Positions 27,617 to 55,843 of a DNA stretch of 63,605 nucleotides are shown here, in pieces (position 1 is the first letter of the stretch; each line of letters begins with the position of its first letter). Below the pieces are notes generated by a model. It did no database searches. It saw only the letters and a program-made list of their open reading frames with translations, and had not been told where the DNA came from. The position numbers and the translations under genes were made by a program. Source of the stretch: an uncultured Ruminococcus sp. (GTDB lineage Bacteria > Bacillota > Clostridia > Oscillospirales > Acutalibacteraceae); the NCBI GenBank assembly GCA_964601235.1, contig CAZRMP010000001.1, positions 1 to 63,605 of the forward strand, in the 5' to 3' direction.

Positions 27617-27628
27617 GGAGAAAAAACT

Positions 27629-34371: not shown

Positions 34372-34455
<84 letters not shown>

Positions 34456-34462
<7 letters not shown>

Positions 34463-35279: not shown

Positions 35280-35308
35280 TTGAAAGCTTGTTAGAAAAAA
35301 TATATAAT
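35280..35308 (+). promoter_or_regulatory. Sigma-A type promoter of the 20-kb GH16/ABC/surface-protein operon
   Basis: TTGAAA, 17 nt, TATAAT. Duplicate of the 30029-30057 promoter, including the downstream ATTGCACGATA box (35320-35330). Confidence 0.65.
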
Positions 35309-35387
35309 TAGTGTGCGAGATTGCACGATACTTATTGTGTAAAATAACAAACTAAATTTTCAAAAAAATATTAGAAAGGTGTTTGGT

Positions 35388-36689
35388 ATGAAATTTTTTA
35401 AGAACGAAGACATAAGCAAAAAAGGGCTTGCCGTAAGACTTGCGTGCCTTGTTTTAGCAATCCTTATGCTTCTTGCCTCCTGCGGTGAGGATACCGCAAC
35501 CGCTTCTAAAAAGAAGAAGAAGAAGGTAGTTGTAGTTAAAAAACCGGATTCTTCTAACACTGAATCTTCAGGCGACGATGACGATGATAATTTCGTTTAT
35601 GACGAGGACGACGAGGATGAGGAAGAAGAGGAAGAGGAAGAGGACAAGGACGAGGAAGAAGACGAGGGTGAAGACCTTAAAAAGGAACCTGACGTCGACC
35701 ATTCCGACCGCAGCTCTCATGTTCCCTCTCAATACAGCAATCTTGTTTTTGCAGAGGAATTTGAAGGCACTGCATTGAACCGCGATATTTGGACGATAGA
35801 AACAGCAGAAACAAGAACCGATACATATTGTGCAAACATCCCTGAATTGTTAGGCGTATATGACGGTGAGTTACACCTGACTACCCGCCGTTGGTTCGAC
35901 CCTTATGATGAGGAAATCAAGTATGCAACTCCTCCCGGCCTGCATACAACCAACGGTATGTGTTGGCGTTACGGCTATCTTGAGCTTTGCGCAAAGATAC
36001 CCCTTAACAGTGCCGTATGGTCTGCCTTCTGGATGTGTACGAGAGCGGAACATAAAGAAGATATCTACGATTATATGATAGAAATTGATATGATCGAGAC
36101 CTTCGGTAGCTATAACACCATAGTTCCGAACCTTCATAAGTGGTACTCACCCACAGGTAAGCAGAAGAACTTTGATAAGTGGAAAGATGTATATAACCTC
36201 AACACTATAGACGACTGCTCTTACCTCAAACACACTCAGAACGATTTCAGGTCGCCTTACAAGGTTCCGCATCCCGAAAACTTCAGCAACCAATACCACA
36301 CCTATGCCTTTGAGTGGACAGATACATATATGGCATGGTATTTTGACGGCGTTGAATATGACCGTTATGATTTCGCAACAAGATATGACTCTTTCTATTT
36401 TGATAAGGCTAAAAAGAGTGAAAACGGCACCGATATGTCGAACTTTGTTGCATCAAAACAGATGATGTGGTTTATTATCGGTAACGGCGCTATTTCTCCC
36501 CAGTCAACGGGAGATATCGGTACGGGCTTTGCTCCTGCTGATGCGGACTATCCTGCAGAAATGGCTGTGGATTGGATTAGAATTTACCACGATCCCAACC
36601 AAAAGGATAATCTTATTCAGGTCGGCAGTGAGCAGGTTACCAACAAGAGAATAATTTTACCTGACGGAACCGGTAAATCTGAATTTTAA
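35388..36689 (+). CDS. GH16 lipoprotein with a highly charged low-complexity linker
   Basis: ATG 35388 (RBS GAAAGGTG). Lipobox LLASC. K6-V4-KK followed by a D/E-rich tract. GH16 motifs WRYGYLELCAK, WSAFWM, EIDMIE. Confidence 0.85.
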   Translation: MKFFKNEDISKKGLAVRLACLVLAILMLLASCGEDTATASKKKKKKVVVVKKPDSSNTESSGDDDDDNFVYDEDDEDEEEEEEEEDKDEEEDEGEDLKKEPDVDHSDRSSHVPSQYSNLVFAEEFEGTALNRDIWTIETAETRTDTYCANIPELLGVYDGELHLTTRRWFDPYDEEIKYATPPGLHTTNGMCWRYGYLELCAKIPLNSAVWSAFWMCTRAEHKEDIYDYMIEIDMIETFGSYNTIVPNLHKWYSPTGKQKNFDKWKDVYNLNTIDDCSYLKHTQNDFRSPYKVPHPENFSNQYHTYAFEWTDTYMAWYFDGVEYDRYDFATRYDSFYFDKAKKSENGTDMSNFVASKQMMWFIIGNGAISPQSTGDIGTGFAPADADYPAEMAVDWIRIYHDPNQKDNLIQVGSEQVTNKRIILPDGTGKSEF

Positions 36690-36707
36690 TTTCTCAAGGA
36701 GGAACGT

Positions 36708-39506
36708 ATGAAGATTAAACGAAATCTACAACTCATACTGTCGGTACTGGCGGCTGTTTGTATGACGGCTCAGGTGGGCGCCATCGCTGCTCCTGTCGCT
36801 TATTCCGAATACAAAACAGGCAACGCAGAGATATCCACGGTCAGCGATGGAGTAAGAATTAAAGGTTCTGATTTTTCTGCCTGCACCGATAGCGCGCTTA
36901 GGGCCGAAGGTGACGGTTCAATAATTCTTGGCGCCGATGAAGCGGTTGATTATAATTTCAGCGTTCCTTCCGACTCCATATATAATATTTACCTTTCTTA
37001 TGCCGCTATTGAAGATAACAAGTCGAATCTTAATATCGGAATTAAGCTTGACGGAGAATATCCCTTTGAAGAGGCGGGCAGTCTCTCTTTCCCGACTGCT
37101 TGGAACAATGAAACCAATGATTTCGCGGAGGACGATAAGGGAAATCAGCTTACTCCTAAGCAGGTTATGGTTGACGGCTTCTTTACATATCCCGCATATG
37201 ATGATACCGGCGTTGAAATAAAACCATATGAGTTTTTCATTTCCGCCGGAGCTCACACTGTTTCTCTCACGGCGATAGGCGACGGTGTTAAGCTTAACAC
37301 AGTAATGATTGCCCCGGTGAGAAGAGAGACTTCATATGAGGACTACATAAAGAATTATGACACCAAAGCTGCCAACGGCGCTGAGACGGTGGTTTTACAG
37401 GCAGAAAAATCTGTAAACAAGACCTCTTTCGCTCTTATTCCGAAATCGGATACTCTCAACAACGATGTTAAGCCCGCCGACCCCAAGAGAATTATGCTTA
37501 ACTATATGGGAGGCACCTCTTGGCAAACCCCCGGCGAGCAGATTTCCTGGAGCTTTAATGCCGAAAAAGACGGACTTTACAAGTTTGTTTTCCACTATAA
37601 ACAGAGCGACAACATCAACCGTCCTTCTTACAGGCATTTGATGGTTGACGGTAATACACCCTTCTCTGAAGCCCGCGAGCTTAAATTTGATTATACCACA
37701 GGCTGGAAAACCTATGAGTTGGGCGACGGTGAGGAGCCTTATTATGTGTGGCTTGCCAAGGGTGAGCACACCCTCACATTGGCGGCAACCCTCGGTTCAA
37801 ATACCGCCGATTATTACAACAGATTAAGCGAGATATGTAATAATCTTAACTCGATATATCTTAACATCATTAAGATTACCGGAACATCGCCTGACCTTAA
37901 CCGCGATTATGAGCTCTTTACACAGATTCCCGACTTAGAGGAAGCTTTGACTCAAAACCGCGACCTGCTTGAAAAGCTTAATAACGACATAACCGAAGAC
38001 AGCGGCGGCGATACAAACGAACTTTCTGCAGCGCTTGACAATATGCTTCTTGTTATTGATAAGATGCTTAAGTCGCCCTACTCCGCTCATCAGTATGTTA
38101 CAAACTTCTATTCCAACTTCAGCTCTGCAAGTACCTGGCTGCAGGATATGAAGAAGATGCCCTTGGCTCTTGACTATGTGGCGGTAGTACCCTCCGATTC
38201 GGATTATGAAGGTGACTCCTCCTTCTTTGGGGGACTTAAGTTCAGATTCCTTCGTCTTTTGGCTTCCTTCTCTTCGGAATATGATTCCGGATACGAGAAA
38301 GACGATGAAAACACAATCACGATTTGGACAGGTTTGGGACGCGATCAGGCCAACGCAATCGATACCTTAATCAAGCAGGACTTCACACCGAAAACAGGTG
38401 TAAAGGTTAATTTGAAAATCGTTCAGGCTACTCTTATCAACGGTCTTTTGGCGGATGACGTGCCGGATGTTATGCTTAATATGCCCCGTACACAGCCGGT
38501 TAACTACGGCGTAAGAAACGCCCTATACGATTTGAGGCAATTTGACGATTACGACGAGGTTATGAAGCGTTTCCAGGATGGTGCAGATATTCCTTATACC
38601 TATAAGGGAAAGACATACGCAATCCCCACCTCTCAGACCTTCAATGTTATGTTCTACAGAACAGATATACTTGAAAAGCTCAATATTTCCGTTCCTCAGA
38701 CATGGTCCGAGTTTATGGACGCTTCGGTTACAATCCAGCGAAACAATATGGAAGTCTTCATTCCGTACGCATCCGCTTTAGCGGGTAATGCGGGTATAGG
38801 CAGTACAGGTCTTTACCCCACACTTATGCTGCAGAAGGGTCTCTCCTTCTACAACGATGAGGGAACGGCTACTGCTATTAATACTCCCGCATCAATAAGC
38901 GTTTTTGACAACTGGATTAAAATGTATACCAATTATAAGATACAGAAATCCGCTGATTTCTACAACCGTTTCAGAATGGGTATTATGCCCCTTGGCGTTG
39001 CAGGGTACGCAACATATTTTAACTTTGTTCAGATGGCACCTGAAATTCAGGGTCAATACTCAATGGCTCTTGTTCCCGCTGATGATGAAACGGGCAGCAG
39101 AGCGGTGGCAGTAGACGGCGGCGCTTGCGCCATCGTAAAGAAAACCAATAATCCCGAGGCTGCTTGGGAGTTCCTTAAATGGTATACCTCTACCGATGTT
39201 GTTATCGAATATTCAAGGCGTGTTGAGTCTATTCAGGGCTTGGTCGGACGAATCCAGACCTCTAATGTTGAGGCTCTTAACAAAATGGATTGGAACGATG
39301 AGCAGTTAGCGGTAATCAACGAACAGTGGAAGCTTGCTAAGGAAATTCCCGAGGTTCCCGGAAGCTATTATTTATTACGCGCGGTTGATCAGGCTTATTG
39401 GTCGGTTATCAACGGAAAACAGAATTCTAAGGACGCTATGGCGTACTGGTCTGCGTCGGCAGATGCGGAAATAGAGCGCAAGTATCTTGAATTCGCAAAT
39501 AATTGA
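36708..39506 (+). CDS. 932-aa extracellular solute-binding protein fused to two N-terminal CBM6/35-like modules
   Basis: RBS AAGGAGG and a signal peptide. Two beta-sandwich-like modules (VDYNFSVPSDSIYNIYLSYA...AGAHTVSL and ISWSFNAEKDGLYKFVFHYK...GEHTLTL). The C-terminal ~430 aa match a family-1 sugar SBP (ITIWTGLG...GVKVNL...YAIP...FYRTD). Confidence 0.75.
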   Translation: MKIKRNLQLILSVLAAVCMTAQVGAIAAPVAYSEYKTGNAEISTVSDGVRIKGSDFSACTDSALRAEGDGSIILGADEAVDYNFSVPSDSIYNIYLSYAAIEDNKSNLNIGIKLDGEYPFEEAGSLSFPTAWNNETNDFAEDDKGNQLTPKQVMVDGFFTYPAYDDTGVEIKPYEFFISAGAHTVSLTAIGDGVKLNTVMIAPVRRETSYEDYIKNYDTKAANGAETVVLQAEKSVNKTSFALIPKSDTLNNDVKPADPKRIMLNYMGGTSWQTPGEQISWSFNAEKDGLYKFVFHYKQSDNINRPSYRHLMVDGNTPFSEARELKFDYTTGWKTYELGDGEEPYYVWLAKGEHTLTLAATLGSNTADYYNRLSEICNNLNSIYLNIIKITGTSPDLNRDYELFTQIPDLEEALTQNRDLLEKLNNDITEDSGGDTNELSAALDNMLLVIDKMLKSPYSAHQYVTNFYSNFSSASTWLQDMKKMPLALDYVAVVPSDSDYEGDSSFFGGLKFRFLRLLASFSSEYDSGYEKDDENTITIWTGLGRDQANAIDTLIKQDFTPKTGVKVNLKIVQATLINGLLADDVPDVMLNMPRTQPVNYGVRNALYDLRQFDDYDEVMKRFQDGADIPYTYKGKTYAIPTSQTFNVMFYRTDILEKLNISVPQTWSEFMDASVTIQRNNMEVFIPYASALAGNAGIGSTGLYPTLMLQKGLSFYNDEGTATAINTPASISVFDNWIKMYTNYKIQKSADFYNRFRMGIMPLGVAGYATYFNFVQMAPEIQGQYSMALVPADDETGSRAVAVDGGACAIVKKTNNPEAAWEFLKWYTSTDVVIEYSRRVESIQGLVGRIQTSNVEALNKMDWNDEQLAVINEQWKLAKEIPEVPGSYYLLRAVDQAYWSVINGKQNSKDAMAYWSASADAEIERKYLEFANN

Positions 39507-39519
39507 GGAGAAATCGGTA

Positions 39520-40434
39520 ATGAGAGAAAAATCTTTAAAAAAGAAAAGCCGAAAATGGTCTTTTGCTGAACAATGGCCGATGATTTTAATGGTTATACCG
39601 TTTATGGTTGTCTTTGCAACGATGGTAATCATTCCGATAATAGCTTCAATTGTTCTTAGCTTCACCAACTTCGATGCAATCCAGCTTCCGAAGTTTGTAG
39701 GTTTTGACAACTATATGCGTATGTTCGTTTCCGACGATGTATTTCCGATTGTGTTTAAAAACACACTCGTAATTGCGATTGTCGTAGGACCTATAGGCTT
39801 TTTAATGTCATTTGTTTTGGCGTGGTTCGTAAATGAGTTCTCTTCAGGGCTCAGAACAGTTTTATCCTTCATGTTCTATGCGCCGTCACTCGTAGGTAAC
39901 GCTTACTTCGTTTGGCAGGTACTTTTCAGCGGCGACGCTTACGGATATATCAACAACCTACTCCTGTCCATAGGTATTATTACCGAGCCTATCCAATGGC
40001 TGAAAACGTCTGAATACATACTTGTAATTGTAATTATCGTTCAGGTTTGGCAGAGTATGGGTGTTTCCTTCCTCTCGAATATATCAGGTCTGCAAAATAT
40101 AAGCCGAGATATTTACGAGGCGGGCGCTATAGACGGTATAAAGAACCGTTGGCAGGAGCTGAGATACATAACCCTGCCCTCAATGTCGAGTATGTTGCTG
40201 TTCTCGGCTGTTATGCAGATATCCGGCGCCTTCTCAGTAAGCGCTGTTGCACAGGCACTGGCAGGCTATCCGTCGGTTGAGTACGCTGTTGATACGATAG
40301 TATCTTATATGACGGATGTCGGCGGTACAAGATTTGAAATGGGCTATGCTTCGGCAATTTCGGTAGTTCTGCTGTTAATGATGGTCATTTTCAGGACTAT
40401 TGTCGGAAAATTGCTGAAACTTGTTACTAAGTAG
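39520..40434 (+). CDS. Sugar ABC transporter permease (LplB/MalF-like)
   Basis: Start at ATG 39520 (RBS GAGGAG). Six TM helices. EAA loop IYEAGAIDGIKNRWQELRYITLP. Confidence 0.85.
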   Translation: MREKSLKKKSRKWSFAEQWPMILMVIPFMVVFATMVIIPIIASIVLSFTNFDAIQLPKFVGFDNYMRMFVSDDVFPIVFKNTLVIAIVVGPIGFLMSFVLAWFVNEFSSGLRTVLSFMFYAPSLVGNAYFVWQVLFSGDAYGYINNLLLSIGIITEPIQWLKTSEYILVIVIIVQVWQSMGVSFLSNISGLQNISRDIYEAGAIDGIKNRWQELRYITLPSMSSMLLFSAVMQISGAFSVSAVAQALAGYPSVEYAVDTIVSYMTDVGGTRFEMGYASAISVVLLLMMVIFRTIVGKLLKLVTK

Positions 40435-40446
40435 GAGTGTGTGAAA

Positions 40447-41382
40447 ATGGAAAATGTTAAAATTGCTCAGACTTCTACTCCTGTTGCAGGCAAGAAGAAA
40501 AAATTTCACTTCCGCAAGCCCAGTAAAAAGCAGTTCAGCAAAAGATTTACAAGGTCAAGAGCAGGTAATGTATTTTATTTCCTATTCTTAACATTAGCAG
40601 GACTTTTCTGCCTTTTGCCGCTCATATATTCAGTTGTCACATCCTTTAAGCCTCTTGACGAAATAATGATTTTCCCACCGAGATTTTTCGTTAAAAGACC
40701 TACTATCGGTAACTACATTGCGTTACCTGAGTTGCTTTCGGGCTTAGAGGTCTCGATTGACAGATATATTTTCAACAGTATCTTTACAGGCATTATTGCA
40801 ACCTTCCTCTTTGTCGCGCTTTCTTCTATGGCGGCGTTCTCCCTCTCTAAGGGTAAGTACGGTGGAAGAAATACAATGTTTAATGTCGTTCAGTACGCAT
40901 TGCTTTTCAACGGCTACACATTGGCTTTGCCACAGTACATTATATTAACTAAGCTGCATGTAGTTGATACATACTGGGCTTTCATCCTACCTCATATGGC
41001 TTCAACCTTGGGTATATTCCTTATGAAGCAGTATATTGACGGATATGTTCCCGAAACATATATTGAGGCAGGAAAAATCGACGGTGCTTCATATTTCAGA
41101 ATTTTCTGGAAGATTGTTATTCCGATTATCCGCCCCGCGATGCTTACATTAATACTGTTTGGCTTCCGCGAGGTATGGGCGTATGCACCGGGAACAACGG
41201 TATACACCGAAACAATCAAAACTTTGCCTATGATAACGACCCAGGTTACAAGTGCCGGTGTTGCCCGTACGGGTAGCTCGATGGCATTAACGGTAATAAT
41301 GATGATTCCGCCTATAGTTATTTATATGGCTACTCAAAGCGGTGTTACGGAAACAATGAGCAGTGCAGGTATTAAGGAGTAG
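40447..41382 (+). CDS. Sugar ABC transporter permease (LplC/MalG-like)
   Basis: ATG 40447 sits 9 nt after AGGAG. EAA loop IEAGKIDGASYFRIFWKIVIPI. Confidence 0.85.
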   Translation: MENVKIAQTSTPVAGKKKKFHFRKPSKKQFSKRFTRSRAGNVFYFLFLTLAGLFCLLPLIYSVVTSFKPLDEIMIFPPRFFVKRPTIGNYIALPELLSGLEVSIDRYIFNSIFTGIIATFLFVALSSMAAFSLSKGKYGGRNTMFNVVQYALLFNGYTLALPQYIILTKLHVVDTYWAFILPHMASTLGIFLMKQYIDGYVPETYIEAGKIDGASYFRIFWKIVIPIIRPAMLTLILFGFREVWAYAPGTTVYTETIKTLPMITTQVTSAGVARTGSSMALTVIMMIPPIVIYMATQSGVTETMSSAGIKE

Positions 41383-41390
41383 TGTTTATT

Positions 41391-43514
41391 ATGTACAAAA
41401 CAAAATTTAAATGCATAAAACGCTTTCTGGTTTGTTCTCTTGTCGTTCTTTTGATTGCATCAATGGCGGCTGTATCTGTCTCTGCGGCGCAGGTTCCGAT
41501 TGACGCTTATAACTATTGGACAGATACTAAGGGTGACGGCAGTAAAAAATCTGTTTACTCAAGGCTTGCGTTCGAAGCGGAAAGCGTTATAGACGCTCAG
41601 TCCTTGAATGTACCTTACTATAACGAGATTTCTGATTTTTGTGTTGATAACGGCAACATTTATATTCTTGACGGAAATGATTCAAGAATTACGATTGTTG
41701 ACGCCGGTTACAATGTAATCAAAGATGTTTATGATGTCAATTATAACGGCGAAGCCTTGAATTATAAGGGAGCCAGCGGCATATTTGCCAAAAACGGCAA
41801 GATATATATATGTGATACGGAAAATGAACGGGTTTTGGTTATGGATGAGAGCTGTAATGTTATCACTGTAATCAAACGGCCTACTTCATCTATTATTCCG
41901 GATGACTTTCATTACCGTCCGATAAAATTAACAGCAGATTCACAAGGTTATCTGTATATCTTAATAGAAGGTTCTTTCTACGGAGCGATGCTGTTTACAC
42001 CTTCCTATGAGTTTGTTGAATTTTTCGGTTCTAACGATGTTGTCAACAGTCTTTCAACTGTTTTCTCTAATATTATCTCGCGTGTTTTCCCGAATAATGA
42101 CAAAAAGGCGGCAAGCGTAAAGACCCTGCCCTTCAGTATTGTTGATTTGTGTATGATAGAGGATGACTTCGTATACACAGTTACGGGCAGAACAGATTAT
42201 GTGTCTCAAAAAGGGCAGATCCGTAAGCTGTTTATCGGAACCGGAAGCAATATCTTAGAATACACAGGGAATTTTGTCGATCAAGGTATAAACAACTCGC
42301 GACTCGGCGGCAAAAACATGCTTCAGGACTTATGCAGTATCGATGTTGACGAAAGCGGATTTATATACGCGCTCGATTCAAAGTACGGAAGAATTTTCGT
42401 TTACGATACTACAGGAAGGCTGATTACAACCTTCGGCGGCGGTTTGGACTACGGCGAGCAGGCAGGAACATTTAAAGCGGCAAAGACACTGGCCCTTAAC
42501 GGCGACAGGCTGCTTGTTCTTGACACCTTTAAGAACACTATCACCGTTTTCAAGCACAATGAGTATTTCAACCTTATCAAGCAGGCACAGCTGCTTACCT
42601 TGGAAGGTGACTATACTGCCTCTGAAGGACTTTGGAGACAGGTATTGGCTCAGGACAGTAACTGCCAGATAGCCTATGCAGGCTTGGCCCGCGCGGAATA
42701 TGCGGCAGGCAATTATGAACTTGCAGAAGAATATGCCCGCAAGGGTTATGACAGGGATACATACTCCTTAGCCTTCAAAGTATTAAGAACACAGTTTATT
42801 ACCAAATATTTCTGGATAGTAATGATAGTCGCTATCCTTGTGATAGTTGCACTTTTTGTATTGCTTAAGATTAAGAACCGCAAGGGCATAAAGCTTGTAA
42901 AGAATCCAAAGGTTCGACTGGCTATGTCGGTATTGATGCATCCGATTGATACCTTTAATACAATTAAGGAAAAGCGGATGACCTCTGTTACAATAAGCTT
43001 TGTTCTGCTGTTAATATTCTATGTGACAGCGGTTCTCAAGGTGCTCTGCGGCGGTTTTGCTTTTACCTATTATGATCCGTCAAGCTTCAACTCGATTTGG
43101 GTATTGGTTAAGAGCGCAGGCGCAGTTATCCTGTGGATTGCAGCAAACTGGCTTGTATGCTCGCTTATGAGCGGTAACGGCAGAATTACCGAGATAATCA
43201 CGGTTACCTGCTACAGCTTGATTCCGTTGATAATCAACCAAATCATTCAGATCATCTTCACCAATGTCCTCTTGGTTGACGAGGCGGCATTCCTCTCGAT
43301 TATAAGTATGGTTGCGACTATCCTGTTCGTATTTATGCTTGCAACGGGAACTATGATTATTCACGAATACGGGTTCGGCAAATTTGTGGGAACATCGGTT
43401 ATAAGCGTAATCGGAATGGCGATTATAGTATTCCTGATATTCATGGTAGTTATGTTGGTACAGCAGCTCTTCGGATTTATTTCCACTATAATACTGGAAA
43501 TAGCTACGTTTTGA
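41391..43514 (+). CDS. Signal peptide + NHL-repeat beta-propeller + TPR-like segment + C-terminal Yip1-type polytopic membrane domain
   Basis: ATG 41391 (RBS AAGGAG). Repeated Y(I/L).D..N.RI.V.D blades (IYILDGNDSRITIVD, IYICDTENERVLVMD, IYALDSKYGRIFVYD, LLVLDTFKNTITVF). About 6 hydrophobic helices in the last 250 aa. Confidence 0.7.
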   Translation: MYKTKFKCIKRFLVCSLVVLLIASMAAVSVSAAQVPIDAYNYWTDTKGDGSKKSVYSRLAFEAESVIDAQSLNVPYYNEISDFCVDNGNIYILDGNDSRITIVDAGYNVIKDVYDVNYNGEALNYKGASGIFAKNGKIYICDTENERVLVMDESCNVITVIKRPTSSIIPDDFHYRPIKLTADSQGYLYILIEGSFYGAMLFTPSYEFVEFFGSNDVVNSLSTVFSNIISRVFPNNDKKAASVKTLPFSIVDLCMIEDDFVYTVTGRTDYVSQKGQIRKLFIGTGSNILEYTGNFVDQGINNSRLGGKNMLQDLCSIDVDESGFIYALDSKYGRIFVYDTTGRLITTFGGGLDYGEQAGTFKAAKTLALNGDRLLVLDTFKNTITVFKHNEYFNLIKQAQLLTLEGDYTASEGLWRQVLAQDSNCQIAYAGLARAEYAAGNYELAEEYARKGYDRDTYSLAFKVLRTQFITKYFWIVMIVAILVIVALFVLLKIKNRKGIKLVKNPKVRLAMSVLMHPIDTFNTIKEKRMTSVTISFVLLLIFYVTAVLKVLCGGFAFTYYDPSSFNSIWVLVKSAGAVILWIAANWLVCSLMSGNGRITEIITVTCYSLIPLIINQIIQIIFTNVLLVDEAAFLSIISMVATILFVFMLATGTMIIHEYGFGKFVGTSVISVIGMAIIVFLIFMVVMLVQQLFGFISTIILEIATF

Positions 43515-43529
43515 TGAAAGGGTGTAAAA

Positions 43530-45767: not shown

Positions 45768-45801
45768 TTCAGACTGTAAATAATTGATTGTGGTGACGCA
45801 G

Positions 45802-46698: not shown

Positions 46699-46715
46699 CG
46701 GGGGGGTGAGTTTAA

Positions 46716-47696: not shown

Positions 47697-47757
47697 TAAT
47701 TCTTGACGATCATTATAAATCAAAAACAATAAATTCTATTATTGGAGGAAAAAAACT

Positions 47758-49227: not shown

Positions 49228-49281
49228 TTATTTTGAAAACTCGGTAATGTTTTCAAAAGGCAGAGAGGAATGAAATAATCT

Positions 49282-52200
49282 GTGAAAATAAAACAACTTT
49301 CAAAACAATTTTTAGTTGTTGTTTTGGCATTAGCTGTTTTGGCATCGACCTTAATGCTTCAAAGCTTTTCAATCTTCGCAGACGGTGCAATAACCAACTC
49401 TTGGAAAGGCAAAGAAGCGGCAGATTTTGCCGGAGGAAGCGGTACAGACAGCGATCCTTATCAGATTGCCGACGCTTCACAGCTGGCATTGCTTGGTAAA
49501 TACATAGTATCGGACACGCTCGATGAAGACGGCACAAAGTATAAAACAAAATCTTATATACTTACAGCCGATATTTACCTTAACGATGTATCCCCCCTTG
49601 GGGATACACCGTGGTACGAGCGTACCGATACTGACTTAAAGCAGTGGAATTACGGCGCAGGAGCTGTAAACACCGCAAATTACTTTGCCGGTAAATTAGA
49701 CGGTAACGGCTATACAATAAAGGGCATTTACATTGATACCGAATATCAGTGCACCGGCCTCTTCATTGGAACTATGGGGCAGGTCGTTATAAAGAACCTC
49801 GGTATTGAGTCGTCCTATATCAAATCGACCTTTACAGCCACTAATTCTTCTAACCAGGTTGGTGCGATTGTCGGCCGTATAAACAACAATTCAGGAAATA
49901 CAGTCGATATTTCCAACTCCTATGTAGCAGATTCTGTTATTATTACAGGTGCGAATGTCGGCGGTTTCTTCGGTGAGCACGGAGCTCCCTCCAAGGTGAC
50001 AATAACAAACTGTTATTCATCTGCCCAGATTAGCGCCACAGGTAATAAGGGTGCATTTGTGGCAGGAATAGGCGGGAAAAATATTTTAACCGTAAAGAGG
50101 TCCTTCAGTACCCAAACAAATATTAATTTTGTGGGCTACAATTTTACAAGTGAGATTTATGAAGATTGTTATACTTTGGCAACCGCAACGGTAGGTATCA
50201 CAAAGCTTGCTAATCTTGATAAAATGCAGGGTGAAAAAGCGAAGGAAAATATGCCCGCCCTTAACTACACCCATAAGTGGACGGTTCGCGATGGTGATGT
50301 TCCTTATCTTACAGTTTTCGATCATCCTGTAGATGCGGCGGCGCCTACTCTTTCGGGAGATATAAACACAGCAGGTCTGTCAAAAACAACCGCGGCTGTA
50401 ATGTGGCCTGCGGCCAGCGAAGATGTTACAGCGCCTGAGGATATGGTTTACACTCTTTATATGTCTGAAGCACCGATTACAGATGTAAATGCGGCAGGTG
50501 TGGTAAATTGCGGCGAATATATCGGTGAGACCGATGCAACCGTAGATGAACTTACAATGGGCAATAATTATTATTTTGCTGTTGTTGCTACCGATGAAAC
50601 GGGCAAAAGCTCCAACCTGTTTGCTATGGCTCAGCCCTATTGTCATAACTATTCAACATTTGACGATTGGGACGGCACTGTTGCCGAAGGCTTCACCGTA
50701 GGTAACGGTTCTGCGGCAAAGCCTTATATGATTCTTAACGCCGAGCAGTTGGCTTACCTTGTTGATTTGTGCAGAAGCGGTAACGGCGAGGCAACAAGCG
50801 GCAAATATTATACATTAAATGTAGATATTAATCTCAATAATGTAAGCGATGCTGATTGGCAGAAGAACAGCCCCAAGGAGTGGACTGTAGGTACAGCCTA
50901 TGAGTGTGACAAGGCTGCGTTTTACGGTATATTCAACGGTAACGGTCATGTTATCAAGGGCTTGTATATTAATGAGTCTGCGGATGTCTATAACGGTCTT
51001 TTTGCCGCAGTGACTAATAATGCAGTTATTAAAAATCTCGGAATTGAGAACTCATATATCAAAGCAGGCGAGGAAGGCTATGCCGGTGTATTAGCGGGCG
51101 CACGCACTGCTTCTACTAAGGAAGAAGGCGTTGCTGTTGAATATTCATATATCGGCAGCGATGTTACCCTTGACGGTCCGTATCAAGGCGGCTTCTTCGG
51201 AACAGTTTCGAATGTCACTACTATTAAAAATTCTTATTCAAAGGTTAACTTAACGGTTGACGAAGACGGCAAAAATAATCTTGGTACACTTATAGGCGAC
51301 CACTCGATTCCAAACATTACAATTACTGTTGACGGATGCTATAATGCCGTCAACGCTCCTATGGTTGCCTTGACAAACGAGTATGCCAAGGTTACCTATA
51401 AAAATTCCTATACTGTCGGTGCGGACGCGGAGGGTCTCGCTAACAGAACCCTTGAACAAATGACAGGTACGAACGCGATGAACTATATGCGCGGCTTTGA
51501 TTTCGACATCGTATGGGATATTGTGGAAAACGACACACCTGTTCTGGTTGTATTTGTTCCTCCGGTAGAAAATACTAACGATATATGGGACGGCACATTA
51601 GCAACAATTCCCGAGGGTGCTACCCACCCCTATGACAGCGGAACCGGCACAGCGGCCGATCCTTATCTCATTTCCACCCCCGAACAGTTCGCTTATATGC
51701 TCATTAAAGCCAACTGGGGTACTACCAATTCTGTATCCGGCGGAGCACATTATAAATTGTTAAATGATATTTATCTTAATGATGTGTCAGCAGGTGAGTG
51801 GTATAATTCTGCTAATATCAATGCGTGGAGAGGCCAGGCCGATAATGATGCCGAGTGCAGTGGCCGTATGTTCTATGGACATATTCACGGCAACGGTAAA
51901 ACGGTTTACGGTATGTATTATAGCGGCGATGCATATTTTTCCGGATTGATTTACCGTTTTGGTGCAGGTGCAAGTGTTGAGGATTTAAGAATCTCAAAGG
52001 CTTATGTTAATGCTACAAGCTGGAGCGGTTCTCACGGAGTATTAGTCGGACATTCCTGGGGCAATACAACAGTAAAGAATGTCGTTATCGATGATACCGT
52101 AAAGGCCAATGCAGCTAATGGCGGTGCAGCAGTAATAGGCGGAATACAGGGTGATATAACAGCCCCTGTTACTGTTGAGAACTGTTATATCGGCGCTAAT

Positions 52201-54879
52201 ATAACTTCAGGAAACAAAAACCCCCGTGCATTTTTGGGTGCTCTTACTAGTAACTATAGTAAAATAGACTATAATACAACCAGTCATCTTGTTGTTAAAA
52301 ATTCCTGCTATGTAGGTACTTGTCAATTAGTTGTTGAAAATACAACTGCTGGAAAACAACAAGTTAAATTTGAGAACTGCTATACTACAAGTGAAAAACT
52401 ATCGAATATGCGCGATACCGGTACAGGTGTAACCAAACGCACCAAGGCTCAGCTTACAGGCGAAAAAGCCAAAGCAAATATGCAAGGCTTTGATTTTGAG
52501 AGTCTCTGGCGCACACGGGATGGAGATTTCCCGATGTTACAAATATTCCCCGATAATTCTGCGCCAAAGCCAATTCCGGATGAAGAAAATCCGCAATTTG
52601 ATGGCACTATCAGCGTTCCCGAGACCACTAAAATCTCAATAACCATCAGCTGGCCCGAAGCTAAGGACGACTTTACGCCCGGTGCGTTTATGGAATATAA
52701 TGTATATTATTCCGAGTCTCCGATAACTGCGGATAATGTCGGCTCGGCTACAAGGCTTGGTACATACGGTTATAAGCGCGAGGCTACCTTAACTACCGAG
52801 AAATTAGAAACCCTCGGTTTAGAAAGCAAAATCTATTTTGCGGTTGTAGCTATAGACGAAGCGGGCAATGAAGGCTTTATGACTACCGCTGAGCCTATTA
52901 GCCCGAAGGCTTCCGAAAACAAGGTTTGGCAGGGCGGCATAGCAAGGTCCTTTGAATCAGGCTCGGGCACTGAAGACGATCCCTACATTATTGCAAACGC
53001 AGAACAGTTGGCATATCTTGTTTGGAATGCCACCGCAAGCAGTACTGCCACTACTAAGAGAAACGAAGATGGCTCTACTGAATATCTGCCTAAGTATTAT
53101 GCTCTTTCAAACGATATTTCTCTTAACGATGTATCGGTAGAAAACTGGAAGAATAATGATCCGAATGAGTGGTATCCCGGAATTAATGAAGTTAACTGGA
53201 GAAACGGTAGCTACTACGGCCGCTTCTACGGTTCCCTTAACGGTAACGGTTATGTTATTAAGGGACTTTATATCAATGAAAAAGCCACTTTTGTAGGTTT
53301 GATACCTTATATAAACTGCAATGCTCAGATTCAGAAGCTTGGAATTATTGAGTCCGGTGTTTCGGTAAATAACAATGCTAACTGTTATGCAGGTGCCTTT
53401 GCAGGCCGTAGAGATGCGGGAAAAGGTAAAGACGGCGTAAGATTTACAGAGTGCTTCGTTGATGAAACTGTGGAAGTTGACGGAGAGGTGACAGGCGGTG
53501 CGTCAGGTAAAGCATTAGTAGGCGGTTTCATCGGTAATATATTCCACGGTCAAGATATAACGACCGGAATACTTACACTCTTTAAAGACTGCTATTCAGG
53601 CGCGATTGTCAGCGGTTCTGCAGAAGGTAAGCATATGTATTACGGAGTATTTTCCGGAGATACATATTCCGGTAATGTTAAAAATCTGGAATCCAACAAT
53701 TATACCGCAGCTACCATTGTTATGGAAAACTGCTTCAGCACCACCCTTAACGAAAACTTCGTATATGACTATTCGAGATATATGACCGAAGTTATGAATG
53801 CGGAATACGGTAGATATGTCACATACAAGAACTGCTTTACCGCACATACGGTTAACGATAGGGGCTTCACTGTTCTCGGAATTCTTGATATGATCGGTAA
53901 AGACGCTGATAAGTACATTACAGGTCTTGATTATAATAATACCTGGATAACCACAAAAGACGGCACTCCCATGCTCAGAGCCTTCATGAAGGACGGCGAA
54001 AACCGTGAATATCTTGCGATAAACCGTCTCCCTGTTACTGTCACTTTTGCTACAGGCTGTGATCTTGAAGTTGAGTCGCTGAAGGGATATGTAGGCGAGA
54101 AGCTCTCATTACCTACCATTACCCGTGAAGGATATGAATTCCAAGGTTGGTATCTCTATGCTTATGACTCTTCGCTCCAGTATCCTATAGATTTCTTCCC
54201 TGCATTCGATATAACCCTTTATGCTAAGTGGAAAGATCTTTCAACACTCAGGGTAGATTTTGAAAAGTATCCCTATGTTGATGCCGGCGATGAAGGACTC
54301 GGCGAGGACCATGTTTGGTTTAAGCCCGGTGTTGACGGCTACAATGCTAAGTATGTTCACAGCGGAGCACGCAGTATGTTGCGTATCGGAAATCTTGATA
54401 CCGAACAAAGCTTCCAGCTCTTCGATGTTGATTCGAATAAGCTTGAGGTGGGCAAGAAGTATGAGCTTACAATGTGGGTTTACCCTGACGAGGTAACAAG
54501 CGGTAAGATTATGCTCGAATCCTCTGACAGACTCAAGATTTCCAAGAAATCGACTGTTATTGCAAATATTGCTGATGTAACAGCTCTCAAGCAGGGCGAG
54601 TGGCAGCAGGTTAAGATTGAATTCACCGCACAGAACCCCTATGTTCTTATCCGTACATCAGGTTCAAACAAGCTGTATTTCGATGATGTTTCGATTTACG
54701 AGACCGGTGTAGGCACCTTACCTAACGGCAATACCGGAACCAATGTCGGCGGTAATGAAATCGGAAGCACAGGCGAGAGCAACGCCATCGTAATCTGCTT
54801 CGTTGTATTCGCGGCTTCCGCATTGATGATGGCGGCAGTAATTCTTCTTAAAAGGAAACAGTTTAAGGGAGAAAAGTAA
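49282..54879 (+). CDS. 1865-aa membrane-anchored surface protein with four GLUG-type modules, FN3-like domains, a Listeria-Bacteroides-type repeat and a CBM-like domain
   Basis: GTG start. The signal peptide is homologous to that of 30142 (MKIKQLSKQFLVVVLALAVLAS). Four PY.I....QLA.L...Y.L..DI.LN...GNG..IKGLYI modules. GYEFQGWY repeat. C-terminal hydrophobic helix followed by KRKQFKGEK. Confidence 0.8.
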   Translation: MKIKQLSKQFLVVVLALAVLASTLMLQSFSIFADGAITNSWKGKEAADFAGGSGTDSDPYQIADASQLALLGKYIVSDTLDEDGTKYKTKSYILTADIYLNDVSPLGDTPWYERTDTDLKQWNYGAGAVNTANYFAGKLDGNGYTIKGIYIDTEYQCTGLFIGTMGQVVIKNLGIESSYIKSTFTATNSSNQVGAIVGRINNNSGNTVDISNSYVADSVIITGANVGGFFGEHGAPSKVTITNCYSSAQISATGNKGAFVAGIGGKNILTVKRSFSTQTNINFVGYNFTSEIYEDCYTLATATVGITKLANLDKMQGEKAKENMPALNYTHKWTVRDGDVPYLTVFDHPVDAAAPTLSGDINTAGLSKTTAAVMWPAASEDVTAPEDMVYTLYMSEAPITDVNAAGVVNCGEYIGETDATVDELTMGNNYYFAVVATDETGKSSNLFAMAQPYCHNYSTFDDWDGTVAEGFTVGNGSAAKPYMILNAEQLAYLVDLCRSGNGEATSGKYYTLNVDINLNNVSDADWQKNSPKEWTVGTAYECDKAAFYGIFNGNGHVIKGLYINESADVYNGLFAAVTNNAVIKNLGIENSYIKAGEEGYAGVLAGARTASTKEEGVAVEYSYIGSDVTLDGPYQGGFFGTVSNVTTIKNSYSKVNLTVDEDGKNNLGTLIGDHSIPNITITVDGCYNAVNAPMVALTNEYAKVTYKNSYTVGADAEGLANRTLEQMTGTNAMNYMRGFDFDIVWDIVENDTPVLVVFVPPVENTNDIWDGTLATIPEGATHPYDSGTGTAADPYLISTPEQFAYMLIKANWGTTNSVSGGAHYKLLNDIYLNDVSAGEWYNSANINAWRGQADNDAECSGRMFYGHIHGNGKTVYGMYYSGDAYFSGLIYRFGAGASVEDLRISKAYVNATSWSGSHGVLVGHSWGNTTVKNVVIDDTVKANAANGGAAVIGGIQGDITAPVTVENCYIGANITSGNKNPRAFLGALTSNYSKIDYNTTSHLVVKNSCYVGTCQLVVENTTAGKQQVKFENCYTTSEKLSNMRDTGTGVTKRTKAQLTGEKAKANMQGFDFESLWRTRDGDFPMLQIFPDNSAPKPIPDEENPQFDGTISVPETTKISITISWPEAKDDFTPGAFMEYNVYYSESPITADNVGSATRLGTYGYKREATLTTEKLETLGLESKIYFAVVAIDEAGNEGFMTTAEPISPKASENKVWQGGIARSFESGSGTEDDPYIIANAEQLAYLVWNATASSTATTKRNEDGSTEYLPKYYALSNDISLNDVSVENWKNNDPNEWYPGINEVNWRNGSYYGRFYGSLNGNGYVIKGLYINEKATFVGLIPYINCNAQIQKLGIIESGVSVNNNANCYAGAFAGRRDAGKGKDGVRFTECFVDETVEVDGEVTGGASGKALVGGFIGNIFHGQDITTGILTLFKDCYSGAIVSGSAEGKHMYYGVFSGDTYSGNVKNLESNNYTAATIVMENCFSTTLNENFVYDYSRYMTEVMNAEYGRYVTYKNCFTAHTVNDRGFTVLGILDMIGKDADKYITGLDYNNTWITTKDGTPMLRAFMKDGENREYLAINRLPVTVTFATGCDLEVESLKGYVGEKLSLPTITREGYEFQGWYLYAYDSSLQYPIDFFPAFDITLYAKWKDLSTLRVDFEKYPYVDAGDEGLGEDHVWFKPGVDGYNAKYVHSGARSMLRIGNLDTEQSFQLFDVDSNKLEVGKKYELTMWVYPDEVTSGKIMLESSDRLKISKKSTVIANIADVTALKQGEWQQVKIEFTAQNPYVLIRTSGSNKLYFDDVSIYETGVGTLPNGNTGTNVGGNEIGSTGESNAIVICFVVFAASALMMAAVILLKRKQFKGEK
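51586..52497 (+). repeat. 912-bp segment shared with the dockerin protein gene (copy 2)
   Basis: See 30271-31182. The near-identical core is at 51970-52162. Confidence 0.9.
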
Positions 54880-54882
54880 GCT

Positions 54883-55734
54883 ATGAATTTAGAAAACAGC
54901 GGTTACAAGCTTGTGTGGAGCGATGAGTTCGACGGCGGTAAGCTTGACCCCGCTAAATGGACGCTCAGGGCGGATATGGCCGGTAATCCCGGCCTCGCCC
55001 TCTGCGGCGAGGAAAATCCCGCGGTTATGCGTCTTGAGGACGGAAATCTTAAGCTAAGCGCAATAGAAAACCCGGACGGCGATGAACACAAATACTCAAC
55101 CTGCTATTCGGTTACCACATTTAACAAAATGAGGTTCAGGTACGGTTATCTCGAAATATCCGCAAGAGTTCCCTATATGCAGGGCGCGTGGCCGTCCTTT
55201 TGGCTTAAATCTCTTGCCGATGATATTTGCCCTACACCTCGGGCCGATTATATGGCGGAGATCGATGTATTTGAGGTTTTTTCAACTACCGATACCGCTG
55301 TCCCGAATCTTCATAAATGGTATGAGCGTATGGTTAAATTGCCTAACGGATATGAAGTCAATCATACGCAGGGCGGCAATTACCTTGATAAATCGCTCGA
55401 AAGGAAGCTGTATGTATTTAAGGATACAAGCAAGCTTTGCGATGAGTATCACACTTACGGCTTTGAATGGACTCCGGAGTATATGTCTATGTCGATTGAC
55501 GGTGAGGTATATTGCACCTACGATATTAACAGCAATTATGACGAATTTAGCGATATGAGCGGTTTCCATGACGCGCTGTATGTCCTGTTCAATAACCATA
55601 TTTTCACCGAGCATAACAATTCTTGGATTCCTCGCGCAAAGGTAGACGAGAACACGACTTTTCCGATTAATTATTGGATTGATTATATTCGTCTTTATCA
55701 GAAGGATGAATACGGCGATTTATATTTAGGCTAA
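54883..55734 (+). CDS. GH16 glycoside hydrolase without signal peptide
   Basis: The RBS lies in the end of the upstream gene. WSDEFDG, FRYGYLEISARVP, WPSFWL and the EIDVFE catalytic motif are present. Confidence 0.85.
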   Translation: MNLENSGYKLVWSDEFDGGKLDPAKWTLRADMAGNPGLALCGEENPAVMRLEDGNLKLSAIENPDGDEHKYSTCYSVTTFNKMRFRYGYLEISARVPYMQGAWPSFWLKSLADDICPTPRADYMAEIDVFEVFSTTDTAVPNLHKWYERMVKLPNGYEVNHTQGGNYLDKSLERKLYVFKDTSKLCDEYHTYGFEWTPEYMSMSIDGEVYCTYDINSNYDEFSDMSGFHDALYVLFNNHIFTEHNNSWIPRAKVDENTTFPINYWIDYIRLYQKDEYGDLYLG

Positions 55735-55750
55735 GCCAAAAGATAAAACA

Positions 55751-55843
55751 CAGCCGCGTTAAGGTGTTAATAACTTCCGAATTCCGCACCGTGCGACATT
55801 CGGGTCACAGTTAAAATACTGCCTTTAACGCGGTTGTTTTTTT
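55751..55843 (+). terminator. Long compound terminator (14-bp outer stem with two G-U pairs, inner hairpin, T7 run)
   Basis: CAGCCGCGTTAAGG pairs with CCTTTAACGCGGTTG. Inner stem CCGAAT/ATTCGG. Followed by TTTTTTT. Confidence 0.6.

Follow-up and report, generated by a model that had tools for sequence, protein, structure and literature searches.

Organization of the locus

The window analyzed here (the whole 63,605-nt stretch of DNA from an uncultured Ruminococcus sp.) contains an operon of eleven co-directional genes on the + strand at positions 35388-55734, in which glycan-active and import genes are tightly packed. The ATG starts of these open reading frames (ORFs) coincide with those called on the public contig L087, which is 99% identical. 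The features of the operon and its flanks are as follows.

30142-32331, + strand: secreted protein carrying a type I dockerin and two modules of GLUG type, upstream of the operon (Pfam)
32364-34289, + strand: GDSL esterase-GH16 fusion with the motif EIDIFE, upstream of the operon (Pfam)
35280-35308, + strand: sigma-70-type promoter-like site, TTGAAA-17-TATAAT, matching at 11 of 12 positions, some 80 nt before the ORF1 ATG
35388-36689, + strand: ORF1, GH16 lipoprotein of 433 aa with the motif EIDMIE (Pfam; start from the L087 gene call)
36708-39506, + strand: ORF2, 932-aa binding protein, CBM35-like and CUT1 solute-binding protein (SBP) parts (AF2, Foldseek, profiles)
39520-40434, + strand: ORF3, ABC permease of MalF/UgpA type with EAA loop, pair 1 (Pfam BPD_transp_1)
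40447-41382, + strand: ORF4, ABC permease of MalG/UgpE type with EAA loop, pair 1 (Pfam BPD_transp_1)
41391-43514, + strand: ORF5, signal peptide, NHL, TPR, and Yip1 (Pfam, hydropathy)
43530-45767, + strand: ORF6, 745-aa DUF5696 lipoprotein, lipobox VFAGC (Pfam PF18952, E = 5.5e-120)
45802-46698, + strand: ORF7, ABC permease of MalF/UgpA type with EAA loop, pair 2 (family recognized by NCBIfam only)
46716-47696, + strand: ORF8, ABC permease of MalG/UgpE type with EAA loop, pair 2 (Pfam BPD_transp_1)
47758-49227, + strand: ORF9, conventional SBP lipoprotein, lipobox TMASC, Ser/Asn-rich linker (Pfam SBP_bac_8)
49282-54879, + strand: ORF10, 1865-aa surface protein (Pfam, profiles, hydropathy)
54883-55734, + strand: ORF11, GH16 protein of 283 aa with the motif EIDVFE (Pfam)
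55750-55843, + strand: compound intrinsic terminator in which T7 follows nested hairpins (folding at -39.1 kcal/mol; z = -6.6 relative to shuffled sequences)
55874-56815, + strand: GH130, presumed intracellular phosphorylase/hydrolase, adjoining the operon (Pfam)
56903-57739, + strand: AraC-family regulator (cupin and HTH), outside the operon, about 1.1 kb downstream of the terminator

A sequence-only reading of this DNA had placed all eleven ORFs between one promoter and a compound terminator, which agrees with the ORF list, the promoter match, and the folding energy. The operon interior has no terminator comparable to the one at 55750-55843, and an Rfam scan of positions 34000-56000 revealed neither riboswitch nor leader RNA. 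The tight gaps described in that reading were recovered (3-61 nt), whereas its 1-nt overlap exists only if an alternative GTG at 41382 is used. Its domain calls are mostly matched by Pfam, and the spacing and domains together support a single operon of glycan-active and import genes. Among the flanking genes, the GH130 gene possibly belongs to the same regulon. The AraC-family gene is a candidate regulator of the locus; AraC-like genes flank the conserved part of the operon (see below) in 24 of 80 related loci.

Binding proteins, permeases, and the NHL/TPR/Yip1 protein

The ORF2 product has an SPase-I-type signal peptide and two putative CBM35-like beta-sandwiches (residues ~49-203 and 228-361), then a helical bundle at 364-482 and, at 486-930, a CUT1 oligosaccharide SBP. 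The Foldseek search with the full 932-aa AF2 model (pLDDT 87.8) was dominated by the SBP half, which matches CUT1 oligosaccharide SBPs (TM 0.75-0.80) and includes Pfam SBP_bac_8 (residues 550-836), and the N-terminal half was checked separately by sequence profile. The profile matches the CBM35 of PDB entry 5x7g (E = 5e-4), and in the corresponding family Pfam finds Golvesin_C in 10 of 10 members and CBM_35 in 7 of 10. This half may therefore consist of two CBM35-like modules, in line with the earlier description of a CBM-fused binding protein, although the matches support these modules weakly. All 30 ORF2 homologues inspected have SPase-I-type signal peptides and no lipobox. These features point to a cleavable signal peptide and no lipid anchor, and accessory proteins may tether the binding protein. 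Alternatively, the signal peptide, whose residues 2-24 AF2 models as a helix, could stay uncleaved and serve as the anchor.

The two permease pairs are divergent from each other (about 27% identity between ORF7 and ORF3, and about 24% between ORF8 and ORF4), and all four proteins retain the EAA-type loop for ATPase coupling. The locus thus has the two transmembrane subunits with EAA loops of a CUT1 importer and CUT1/class B SBPs recognized by Pfam SBP_bac_8/SBP_bac_1. The ATP subunit is missing, as no ABC ATPase (ABC_tran) was found in the operon or among the ORFs of at least 150 aa in the whole window. For CUT1 systems of Firmicutes, a shared ATPase encoded elsewhere is usual.

ORF5 encodes a six-bladed NHL propeller (residues ~80-400), a TPR region (~405-460), and a C-terminal multi-pass Yip1 domain (~475-700), with hydrophobic segments at 477-691. 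The Yip1 family assignment (PF04893, residues 516-685) reaches 43.7 bits, well over the gathering score of 28.6. Pfam also matches NHL and TPR, and NHL propellers in the PDB provide further matches. The Yip1-family protein YknW of Bacillus is not known to have an NHL propeller or a TPR ectodomain. YknW assists in assembling the ABC transporter YknXYZ (PMC4887032). The YknWXYZ system resembles the present locus in having a Yip1-domain membrane protein encoded with an ABC transporter in Firmicutes, and YknW is needed for assembly (PMC4887032). However, YknYZ works with a membrane-fusion protein and is an exporter of the MacB type, whereas the genes described here are predicted to encode SBP-dependent sugar import.

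Conservation of the core cassette and its variable partners

The conserved unit is a core of seven to eight genes, ORF2-8/9, which encodes the binding protein, permease pair 1, the NHL/TPR/Yip1 protein, the DUF5696 lipoprotein, permease pair 2, and usually a second SBP. The DUF5696 profile corresponds to 5,487 protein clusters at 50% identity, and the scan gave 321 genomic matches among 185,579 species genomes. The order 2-3-4-5-6-7-8(-9) is consistent in all 80 loci from species-representative genomes, seven assemblies contributing 2-3 loci each. Nine further contexts, including Paenibacillus, have the same core, for a total of 89 out of 89 loci examined, which are mostly from MAGs of one order plus a few outliers. 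Among these loci are five more distant contexts. In a reciprocal test, three of three Yip1/NHL homologues picked without reference to DUF5696 sit in the same cassette. The taxa involved are Acutalibacteraceae/Oscillospirales, Emergencia, a Lachnospiraceae MAG, and Paenibacillus, with protein identities down to 25-40%. Paenibacillus spongiae has the same core with a MalK-type ATPase and an SBP upstream.

Within the core of related loci, median gaps are 10-16 nt, and the DUF5696 gene overlaps the next permease gene (median -4 nt). The second SBP is dispensable (present in 45 of the 80 loci and absent in 23, the other 12 loci being cut off by contig ends), and ORF5 and ORF6 are never missing in the loci examined. 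The trio of Yip1 protein, lipoprotein, and CBM-SBP, for which a neighborhood check had been proposed, is conserved together in 89 of 89 loci. The refuting condition set in the sequence-only reading, a cluster that is not conserved as a unit in any other genome, therefore does not apply: the first 10 genes are syntenic in locus L001, and the core is syntenic throughout. The unit under conservation is nevertheless the core rather than the 11 genes.

The genes around the core are variable. Among the 34 loci with enough flanking sequence, GH16 is found in 23 and GLUG modules in 21. Alternative partner sets include GH36/GH63-like/GH3; a GH94 SOGP with a PF10091 (GH144-like) domain; and GH36/GH30/GH78/beta-helix/BspA-LRR/CBM4_9 giants. 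GH16 and the giant surface protein are frequent but replaceable partners of the core. As some cassettes (loci L083-L085) lack any adjacent CAZyme, the link between GH16 and the cassette is statistical rather than obligatory.

The DUF5696 lipoprotein

The ORF6 product had been described as a lipoprotein of unknown fold, which no longer applies. Its AF2 model (pLDDT 87.1, pTM 0.88) has an N-terminal beta-sandwich, a (beta/alpha)8 barrel, and a C-terminal beta-sandwich. The best Foldseek match is 5opq (E = 2.8e-31), 5wzn also matches (E = 3.9e-25), and TM values are 0.62-0.70. The sequence profile has the same best PDB match (5opq, E = 0.0017), in which only short N- and C-terminal motifs align. 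The predicted fold is thus confidently GH129/GH101-like. The three-domain architecture is common to GH129 (the 3,6-anhydro-D-galactosidase ZgGH129, 5opq, and the alpha-GalNAc-ase NagBb, 5wzn), GH101, and the DUF5696 model. By sequence, however, ORF6 falls outside GH129, with about 13% identity and a separate Pfam family (PF18952), and DUF5696 further differs in being always a lipoprotein embedded in an ABC cassette. No activity is known for DUF5696. Literature searches found no paper that contains "DUF5696" or "PF18952", which supports the earlier statement that large components of the locus are without tested function.

One alternative explanation is that DUF5696 is an active extracellular glycosidase or transglycosylase that defines the cassette, which would then serve one (probably alpha-linked) glycan class, with GH16 and other enzymes secondary. 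Apart from the high-confidence GH129/GH101/GH36/GH31-like fold, this fits the conserved residues D460/D462, D543, N579, D605, N625, and E639, which lie near the C-terminal ends of the barrel strands; polar residues at this face are retained in most of the 86 members compared (D543 in 80, N579 in 83, N625 in 85, and E639 in 85). Such an enzyme would also leave cassettes without other CAZymes self-sufficient, and GH36 alpha-galactosidases recur beside the cassette. Nevertheless, the canonical nucleophile position at the end of barrel strand 4 (D534 in ORF6) is D or E in just 52 of 86 members, and every acidic residue is replaced in some members (D543 by N or A in 6 of 86), so DUF5696 may not be an enzyme. 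Furthermore, hhalign gave no usable sequence-level alignment to the GH36 and GH31 proteins of the window, and a single genome can hold paralogues of 35-40% identity whose enzyme partners differ, a pattern more in keeping with a generic subunit than with one specificity. Taken together, we consider a substrate-defining enzyme unlikely.

GH16 enzymes, surface proteins, and substrate

Three proteins contain a GH16 domain above the cut-off (PF00722): ORF1 and ORF11 in the operon, and the GDSL-GH16 fusion, which is likely an accessory enzyme. In ORF1, the lipobox LLASC is followed by a K-rich and a D/E-rich linker and the GH16 domain. The N-terminus of ORF11 lacks a hydrophobic segment, and this protein is presumed to be cytoplasmic. 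The lipoprotein calls for ORF1, ORF6, and ORF9 and the signal-less ORF11 were all recovered, as was the ExDxxE motif in each of the three GH16 domains.

ORF10 has a signal peptide, four GLUG-type modules of about 330 aa that resemble PDB 3n6z, weak FN3-like spacers, an InlB B-repeat (residues 1586-1649), an unassigned domain of about 170 aa, and a C-terminal transmembrane anchor (1836-1854). Pfam detects Flg_new and a weak, sub-threshold fn3. The Pfam Glug motif (PF07581) was rejected (best E = 5.6, in one of six modules), and the assignment is instead by homology to 3n6z (about 280 residues aligned, E = 1.7e-9). Of the GLUG/FN3/CBM architecture proposed earlier, the GLUG part therefore stands through this homology but not as a Pfam motif, FN3 is sub-threshold, and the search for a C-terminal CBM recovered the InlB B-repeat only. 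The upstream secreted protein has two such modules, the first of which is 80% identical to ORF10 residues 767-1088. It is the only protein with a type I dockerin (29.1 bits against 22.9); none of the 11 operon products carries one, and the window showed no cohesin. The match 3n6z, itself of no demonstrated function, is annotated as a "putative immunoglobulin A1 protease". In the present context, however, the module occurs in fusions with GH16 domains, dockerins, or transmembrane anchors beside the cassette, suggesting a glycan-related rather than protease-related role.

Among solved structures, ORF11 matches 6t2n best (E = 6e-22), which is presumably a GH16 chain from a mucin O-glycanase study. 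The remaining solved GH16 structures that matched, with comparable scores, are laminarinases or beta-1,3(4)-glucanases. The GH16 proteins seem to resemble subfamily-3-type endo-β-1,3-glycanases, a class that spans laminarinases and mucin O-glycanases. The beta-1,3 or mixed-linkage glucan or galactan proposed earlier from the ExDxxE motif is a candidate target that derives from GH16 only, and the closest solved structures are of both types. Another explanation is that in this organism host mucin-type O-glycans (poly-LacNAc), and not beta-glucan, are the target, with the GH16 proteins acting as endo-beta-galactosidase-type O-glycanases. In addition to the 6t2n match, the fold relatives of DUF5696 (GH129 and GH101) include mucin-core alpha-GalNAc-ases, and two reports propose that dockerin-bearing relatives in this family form mucin-degrading "mucinolysomes" (PMC12997984; 10.1101/2025.10.14.682383). 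However, the similar scores of the glucanases do not favor mucin, sialidase, fucosidase, GH20, GH84, and sulfatase genes are absent from the window, and the neighboring GH3+CBM6, GH30, GH36, GH78, GH130, and GDSL genes look plant- or microbe-glycan oriented. A mucin-specific locus is accordingly rather improbable.

Comparison with known systems

As Sheridan et al. are said to have defined them in 2016, Gram-positive polysaccharide utilization loci (gpPULs) have co-located CAZyme, transporter, and regulator genes. The present cluster has polysaccharide-degrading enzymes (two GH16 genes in the operon and the GDSL-GH16 gene upstream), two SBPs with four BPD_transp_1/UgpAE-like permeases, and an AraC-family gene. 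Similarities to gpPULs with CUT1 importers, such as the beta-glucan system of Paenibacillus sp. JDR-2 (PMC4765114), include surface-anchored multimodular GH16, SBP-dependent ABC import of oligosaccharides, finishing enzymes inside the cell, a nearby regulator of AraC or LacI type, and an ATPase that is often encoded elsewhere. In contrast, the cassette has two permease pairs in a fixed order, an SBP of about 930 aa that has a signal peptide, is not a lipoprotein, and is fused to two putative CBM35-like modules and a helical bundle, and two obligatory extra components (the NHL/TPR/Yip1 protein and DUF5696). The JDR-2 transcriptome paper (PMC4765114) does not mention Yip1, and literature searches on DUF5696/PF18952, Yip1, and GH129 contexts found no description of the cassette. 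We conclude that the locus is an uncharacterized variant of Gram-positive ABC-based polysaccharide utilization loci.

The cassette also resembles the Sus-like PULs of Bacteroidota in logic: the core for capture and import stays constant, recurs as many duplicates in a genome, and is paired with large glycan-binding surface proteins and with substrate-specific enzymes that vary. The two may also share endo-cleavage outside the cell and trimming inside. However, its parts are not homologous to Sus parts, there is no outer membrane, and import is by ATP-driven ABC permeases. No ORF of the region has a Pfam family of SusC (TonB-dependent transporter) or SusD.

Proposed mechanism

The region is probably a gpPUL centered on a seven-gene import cassette that is conserved across many genomes and had not been described before; the following uptake mechanism may be proposed for it. 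Outside the cell, the lipid-anchored ORF1 GH16, the secreted GDSL-GH16, and the surface and dockerin proteins with GLUG-type modules would bind and endo-cleave a beta-linked glycan. ORF2 would grip long fragments through its two CBM35-like modules and deliver them to permease pair 1. As a secreted protein that lacks a lipid anchor, it would need tethering, and the ORF5 propeller/TPR ectodomain, the DUF5696 lipoprotein, or both may hold it at the membrane. The ORF9 SBP would supply a second, probably shorter, class of oligosaccharides to permease pair 2. DUF5696 may trim or debranch fragments at the membrane, or act as a non-catalytic subunit that holds glycans. A shared MsmK-type ATPase encoded elsewhere would drive both importers. 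In the cytoplasm, the ORF11 GH16, the GH130, and upstream-encoded glycosidases would complete degradation, with the adjacent AraC protein as the likely regulator.

It is very unlikely that the locus has merely two ordinary, independent CUT1 importers side by side among GH16 genes, with the Yip1 protein and DUF5696 as unrelated passengers and no multi-component machine: each permease pair with one SBP would indeed make a standard importer, the pairs are only about 25% identical, and several ABC systems are common in Gram-positive loci (PMC4765114), but the invariant gene order in 89 loci of several lineages despite protein identities down to 25-40%, the short or overlapping core gaps, and the constant presence of ORF5 and ORF6 next to a dispensable second SBP argue against it.

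A more ambitious form of the seven-gene cassette hypothesis can be offered only tentatively. The core may be an unrecognized multi-protein machine for glycan capture and import that would correspond in function to the SusCD "utilisome" of Bacteroidota. In it, a GH129-derived lipoprotein and a propeller/TPR scaffold anchored through Yip1 would dock the CBM-bearing secreted SBP onto two ABC translocons, and the core would have been duplicated and re-paired with different enzyme sets for many glycans.

The seizure and import of glycans at the surface of Gram-positive gut Firmicutes are much less understood than the Sus paradigm of Bacteroidota. The cassette is strictly conserved and multi-copy in gut Clostridia of ruminants and humans and in soil Paenibacillus, and its three large components without tested function make it a testable candidate for a general glycan-uptake module of Firmicutes. 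Paenibacillus spongiae is a cultured organism that carries the cassette and is open to genetics. DUF5696 may represent a new GH129-related family, and the cassette would provide the first functional context for bacterial NHL/Yip1 proteins as well as a marker for predicting Gram-positive PULs in metagenomes.

Operon structure and boundaries

As the sequence-only reading had proposed, eleven co-directional ORFs occupy positions 35388-55734 of the + strand, and their ATG starts coincide with those called in L087, a public contig of 99% identity. The intergenic gaps are indeed short (3-61 nt with the ATG starts). However, the one-nucleotide overlap described for one pair appears only with an alternative GTG at 41382 and is absent with the ATG starts. 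The single promoter (TTGAAA-17-TATAAT, 35280-35308; 11 of 12 positions match) and the compound terminator (nested hairpins at 55750-55843 with T7 behind them; folding energy -39.1 kcal/mol, z = -6.6 relative to shuffled sequence) were both recovered. Inside the operon, promoter-like and terminator-like matches are about as numerous as in shuffled sequences, and an Rfam scan of the region returned no family match and no leader RNA.

Genes and repeats of the operon and its surroundings
12193-28846, co-directional: upstream enzyme block (GH2, GH3+CBM6, GH30, GDSL esterase, GH36, GH130, 549-aa protein, GH78, trehalase/GH63-like)
29561-29591, +: 31-nt element AATCCCTCCGCCTCGTTCCTCGGCACCTCCC
29779-29809, +: second copy of the element
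Upstream neighbours of the operon: dockerin protein, GDSL-GH16
34363-34440: tandem run of the 7-mer GGAATTC, in the pre-operon spacer
34456-34486, +: third copy of the element
34715-34794: 30-nt inverted repeat, in the pre-operon spacer
34973-35003, +: fourth copy of the element
Within 34290-35378: 54-nt direct repeats, in the pre-operon spacer
ORF1: GH16 lipoprotein with a linker that is K-rich, then D/E-rich
ORF2: 932 aa; the C-terminal half is an SBP_bac_8/1 domain
ORF3, ORF4: permease pair 1, MalF/UgpA-like and MalG/UgpE-like
ORF5: signal peptide, NHL propeller, TPR and multi-pass Yip1 domain
ORF6: DUF5696 lipoprotein (PF18952, E = 5.5e-120)
ORF7, ORF8: permease pair 2, MalF/UgpA-like and MalG/UgpE-like
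ORF9: conventional SBP lipoprotein
ORF10: 1865 aa, signal peptide and C-terminal TM anchor
ORF11: GH16, 283 aa, no hydrophobic N-terminal segment
Downstream neighbours of the operon: GH130, AraC regulator

The ExDxxE motif is kept in all three GH16 domains, including that of the upstream GDSL-GH16 protein, in line with the earlier reading. An EAA loop is present in all four permeases, and the two pairs, about 25% identical to each other, are old paralogues. No Pfam match at E <= 0.01 was found for the 549-aa ORF (23532-25181) or a 223-aa ORF (57919-58590). In a 189-aa ORF at 703-1272, an N-terminal phage Mu F-like fragment is joined to a ribonuclease domain of the barnase type; the protein resembles polymorphic toxins and has no relation to the operon.

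The 1.09-kb spacer upstream of the operon (34290-35378) is non-coding and dense in repeats, and it has no Rfam match. The 31-nt element has four exact copies in the window (chance expectation 0). They are confined to two long spacers, one preceding the dockerin gene and one preceding the operon, and the element resembles an intergenic repeat of the REP-like kind.

Conservation of the core across genomes

A profile built from DUF5696 homologues was run on one-genome-per-species contigs and identified 321 encoding stretches, of which the best 80 loci were retrieved and their ORFs searched with the window proteins. The order ORF2-3-4-5-6-7-8 fits all 80. ORF9 is present in 45 and absent in 23, and the remaining 12 end at a contig edge. 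The conserved unit is therefore a core of seven to eight genes (hereafter the cassette), and the expectation that the cluster would be conserved as a unit held for this core, both in these loci and in distant contexts. Within the core, median spacing is 10-16 nt, and the DUF5696 gene runs into that of the next permease (median -4 nt). In the closest relative, DUF5696 is 75% identical and ORF1-ORF10 follow in order to the contig end (L001), and seven assemblies supply more than one of the 80 loci (two or three each).

In Paenibacillus spongiae, the core is preceded by an SBP and a MalK-type ATPase. Three distant loci carry the cassette without an adjacent CAZyme; in one of them two adjacent genes encode the propeller/TPR part and the Yip1 part (L083, 14920-17140), and in another DUF5696 is lengthened to 1230 aa (L085, 17528-21220). 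In the reciprocal test, all three Yip1/NHL homologues, chosen solely for their long contigs, lie within the same cassette. The DUF5696 family itself comprises 5,487 clusters at 50% identity in the profile search at E <= 1e-3, and 3,402 at E <= 1e-30.

The large binding protein and DUF5696

The ORF2 model (pLDDT 87.8) consists of a helix (2-24), two beta-sandwiches (49-203 and 228-361), a helical bundle (364-482) and an SBP domain (486-930). By structure match, the SBP half resembles CUT1 oligosaccharide-binding proteins, including binders of cycloisomalto-oligosaccharides, sophoro-oligosaccharides, acarbose (GacH) and maltose (MalE). The N-terminal profile matches the CBM35 of cycloisomaltooligosaccharide glucanotransferase (E = 4.8e-4), followed by other CBM35/CBM6 modules, and Pfam finds Golvesin_C in 10 of 10 members and CBM_35 in 7 of 10. 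The proposed CBM fusion is thus supported by profile and Pfam, but all matches fall below curated thresholds, and the modules are for this reason labelled CBM35-like. Thirty ORF2 homologues have an SPase-I-type signal peptide and no lipobox, whereas ORF1, ORF6 and ORF9 are lipoproteins. A Gram-positive SBP has to remain at the membrane. Since ORF2 has no lipid anchor, we infer that its conserved helical bundle docks on the propeller/TPR ectodomain of ORF5, on DUF5696, or on both. There is a precedent in YknW, a member of the Yip1 family that influences how the ABC transporter YknXYZ is assembled (PMC4887032).

The ORF6 lipoprotein had been described as of unknown fold, a description that its predicted structure overturns. 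The AlphaFold2 model (29-sequence alignment; pLDDT 87.1, pTM 0.88) places a (beta/alpha)8 barrel between an N-terminal and a C-terminal beta-sandwich, and resembles GH129. Foldseek against the PDB places GH129 first (5opq, E = 2.8e-31, TM 0.62-0.70; NagBb 5wzn, E = 3.9e-25), with GH101, GH36 and GH31 next. Independently of the model, the DUF5696 sequence profile has the same GH129 protein as its top PDB match (E = 0.0017), in the terminal motifs only. Polar residues follow the barrel strands in the model (D460/D462, D543, N579, D605, N625 and E639), and among 86 family members D543 is conserved in 80, N579 in 83, N625 in 85 and E639 in 85. In clan-D-type enzymes the nucleophile lies at the end of barrel strand 4. 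Only 52 of the 86 members have D or E there; catalysis by DUF5696 is therefore no more than possible. The most invariant block lies in the N-terminal domain (E179, PSGSG 208-212, YGxD 232-235 and R298). We give equal weight to a non-catalytic, glycan- or partner-binding role.

Surface modules of ORF10

ORF10 contains four modules of about 330 aa, and the upstream dockerin protein has two copies of the same module. The first module of the dockerin protein (30142-32331) and the third of ORF10 (residues 767-1088; 51580-52551) are 80% identical, and the signal peptides of the two proteins are near-identical, suggesting that a cellulosome-type protein and the membrane-anchored ORF10 have recently exchanged a module. 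Against the PDB, the module profile matches 3n6z, a 'putative IgA1 protease' without an assigned function (E = 1.7e-9). The former GLUG assignment finds some backing in this homology, although the Pfam Glug motif does not reach significance (E = 5.6); the FN3 matches are sub-threshold. An InlB B-repeat is present at residues 1586-1649, and the stretch of ~170 residues that leads up to the TM anchor received no domain assignment.

Proposed mechanism and relation to known systems

The data show the operon structure, the domain identities, the invariant core and the variable partners; the mechanism built on them is a proposal. In it, GH16 and GLUG-module proteins would bind and endo-cleave glycan at the cell surface. 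The CBM-bearing ORF2 would capture long fragments and supply permease pair 1, while ORF9 and permease pair 2 would take up a second oligosaccharide class. ORF5 and ORF6 may act as scaffold or processing subunits that keep the assembly together, and a shared ATPase whose gene lies elsewhere would supply the energy. ORF11, GH130 and others would complete degradation in the cytoplasm, under putative control by the AraC protein.

The region would work like a PUL and fits a loose gpPUL definition, but the absence of SusC and SusD sets it apart from Sus-like PULs. Both importers are of CUT1 type but lack a local ATPase, with no ABC ATPase encoded anywhere in the window. Full-text literature searches did not find two permease pairs, a CBM-SBP, an NHL/TPR/Yip1 protein and a GH129-like lipoprotein as a fixed set. 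That the cassette represents a capture machine of several proteins that is new in kind is conceivable, if rather unlikely.

Enzyme partners and substrate

Partners were counted in the 34 loci whose flanks extend at least 2.5 kb upstream and 3 kb downstream of the core. A GH16 domain occurs in 23 and an ORF10-type module in 21, frequently as one fused protein. Loci without GH16 carry GH36, GH30, GH78, a right-handed beta-helix, or giant BspA-LRR or CBM4_9 proteins. In a subgroup, a set of genes takes the place of ORF9: GH36, AraC, a protein of metallo-beta-lactamase fold, a TIM protein resembling xylose isomerase, a GH63-like protein, and GH3 or GDSL. AraC-like genes lie beside 24 of the 80 loci. 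Partner families from elsewhere recur in the upstream block of the window (12193-28846); because they flank the cassette in other genomes, this block may belong with the cassette system.

ORF1 matches solved structures of laminarinases. The nearest solved structure to ORF11 is 6t2n, with many laminarinases and beta-1,3(4)-glucanases close behind. These matches point to subfamily-3-like endo-beta-1,3-glycanases, with glucan and poly-LacNAc not separated. We take the 6t2n chain to come from a mucin O-glycanase study, which would speak for mucin as the substrate. However, the window encodes no sialidases, fucosidases, hexosaminidases or sulfatases, and a dietary or microbial beta-glycan is therefore favoured over mucin; given the GDSL, GH36, GH78 and GH130 neighbours, this beta-glycan is perhaps decorated.

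In one of the more distant loci (L082; GCA_040777365.1 JBEVUO010700236.1, 1424-22886), GH35/42, a GH94 1,2-beta-oligoglucan phosphorylase, LacI and an SBP lie upstream of the cassette, and downstream lie two genes whose PF10091 domain we take to be GH144. These enzymes are a beta-1,2-glucan-type set, which could give an initial clue to the substrate of the cassette.
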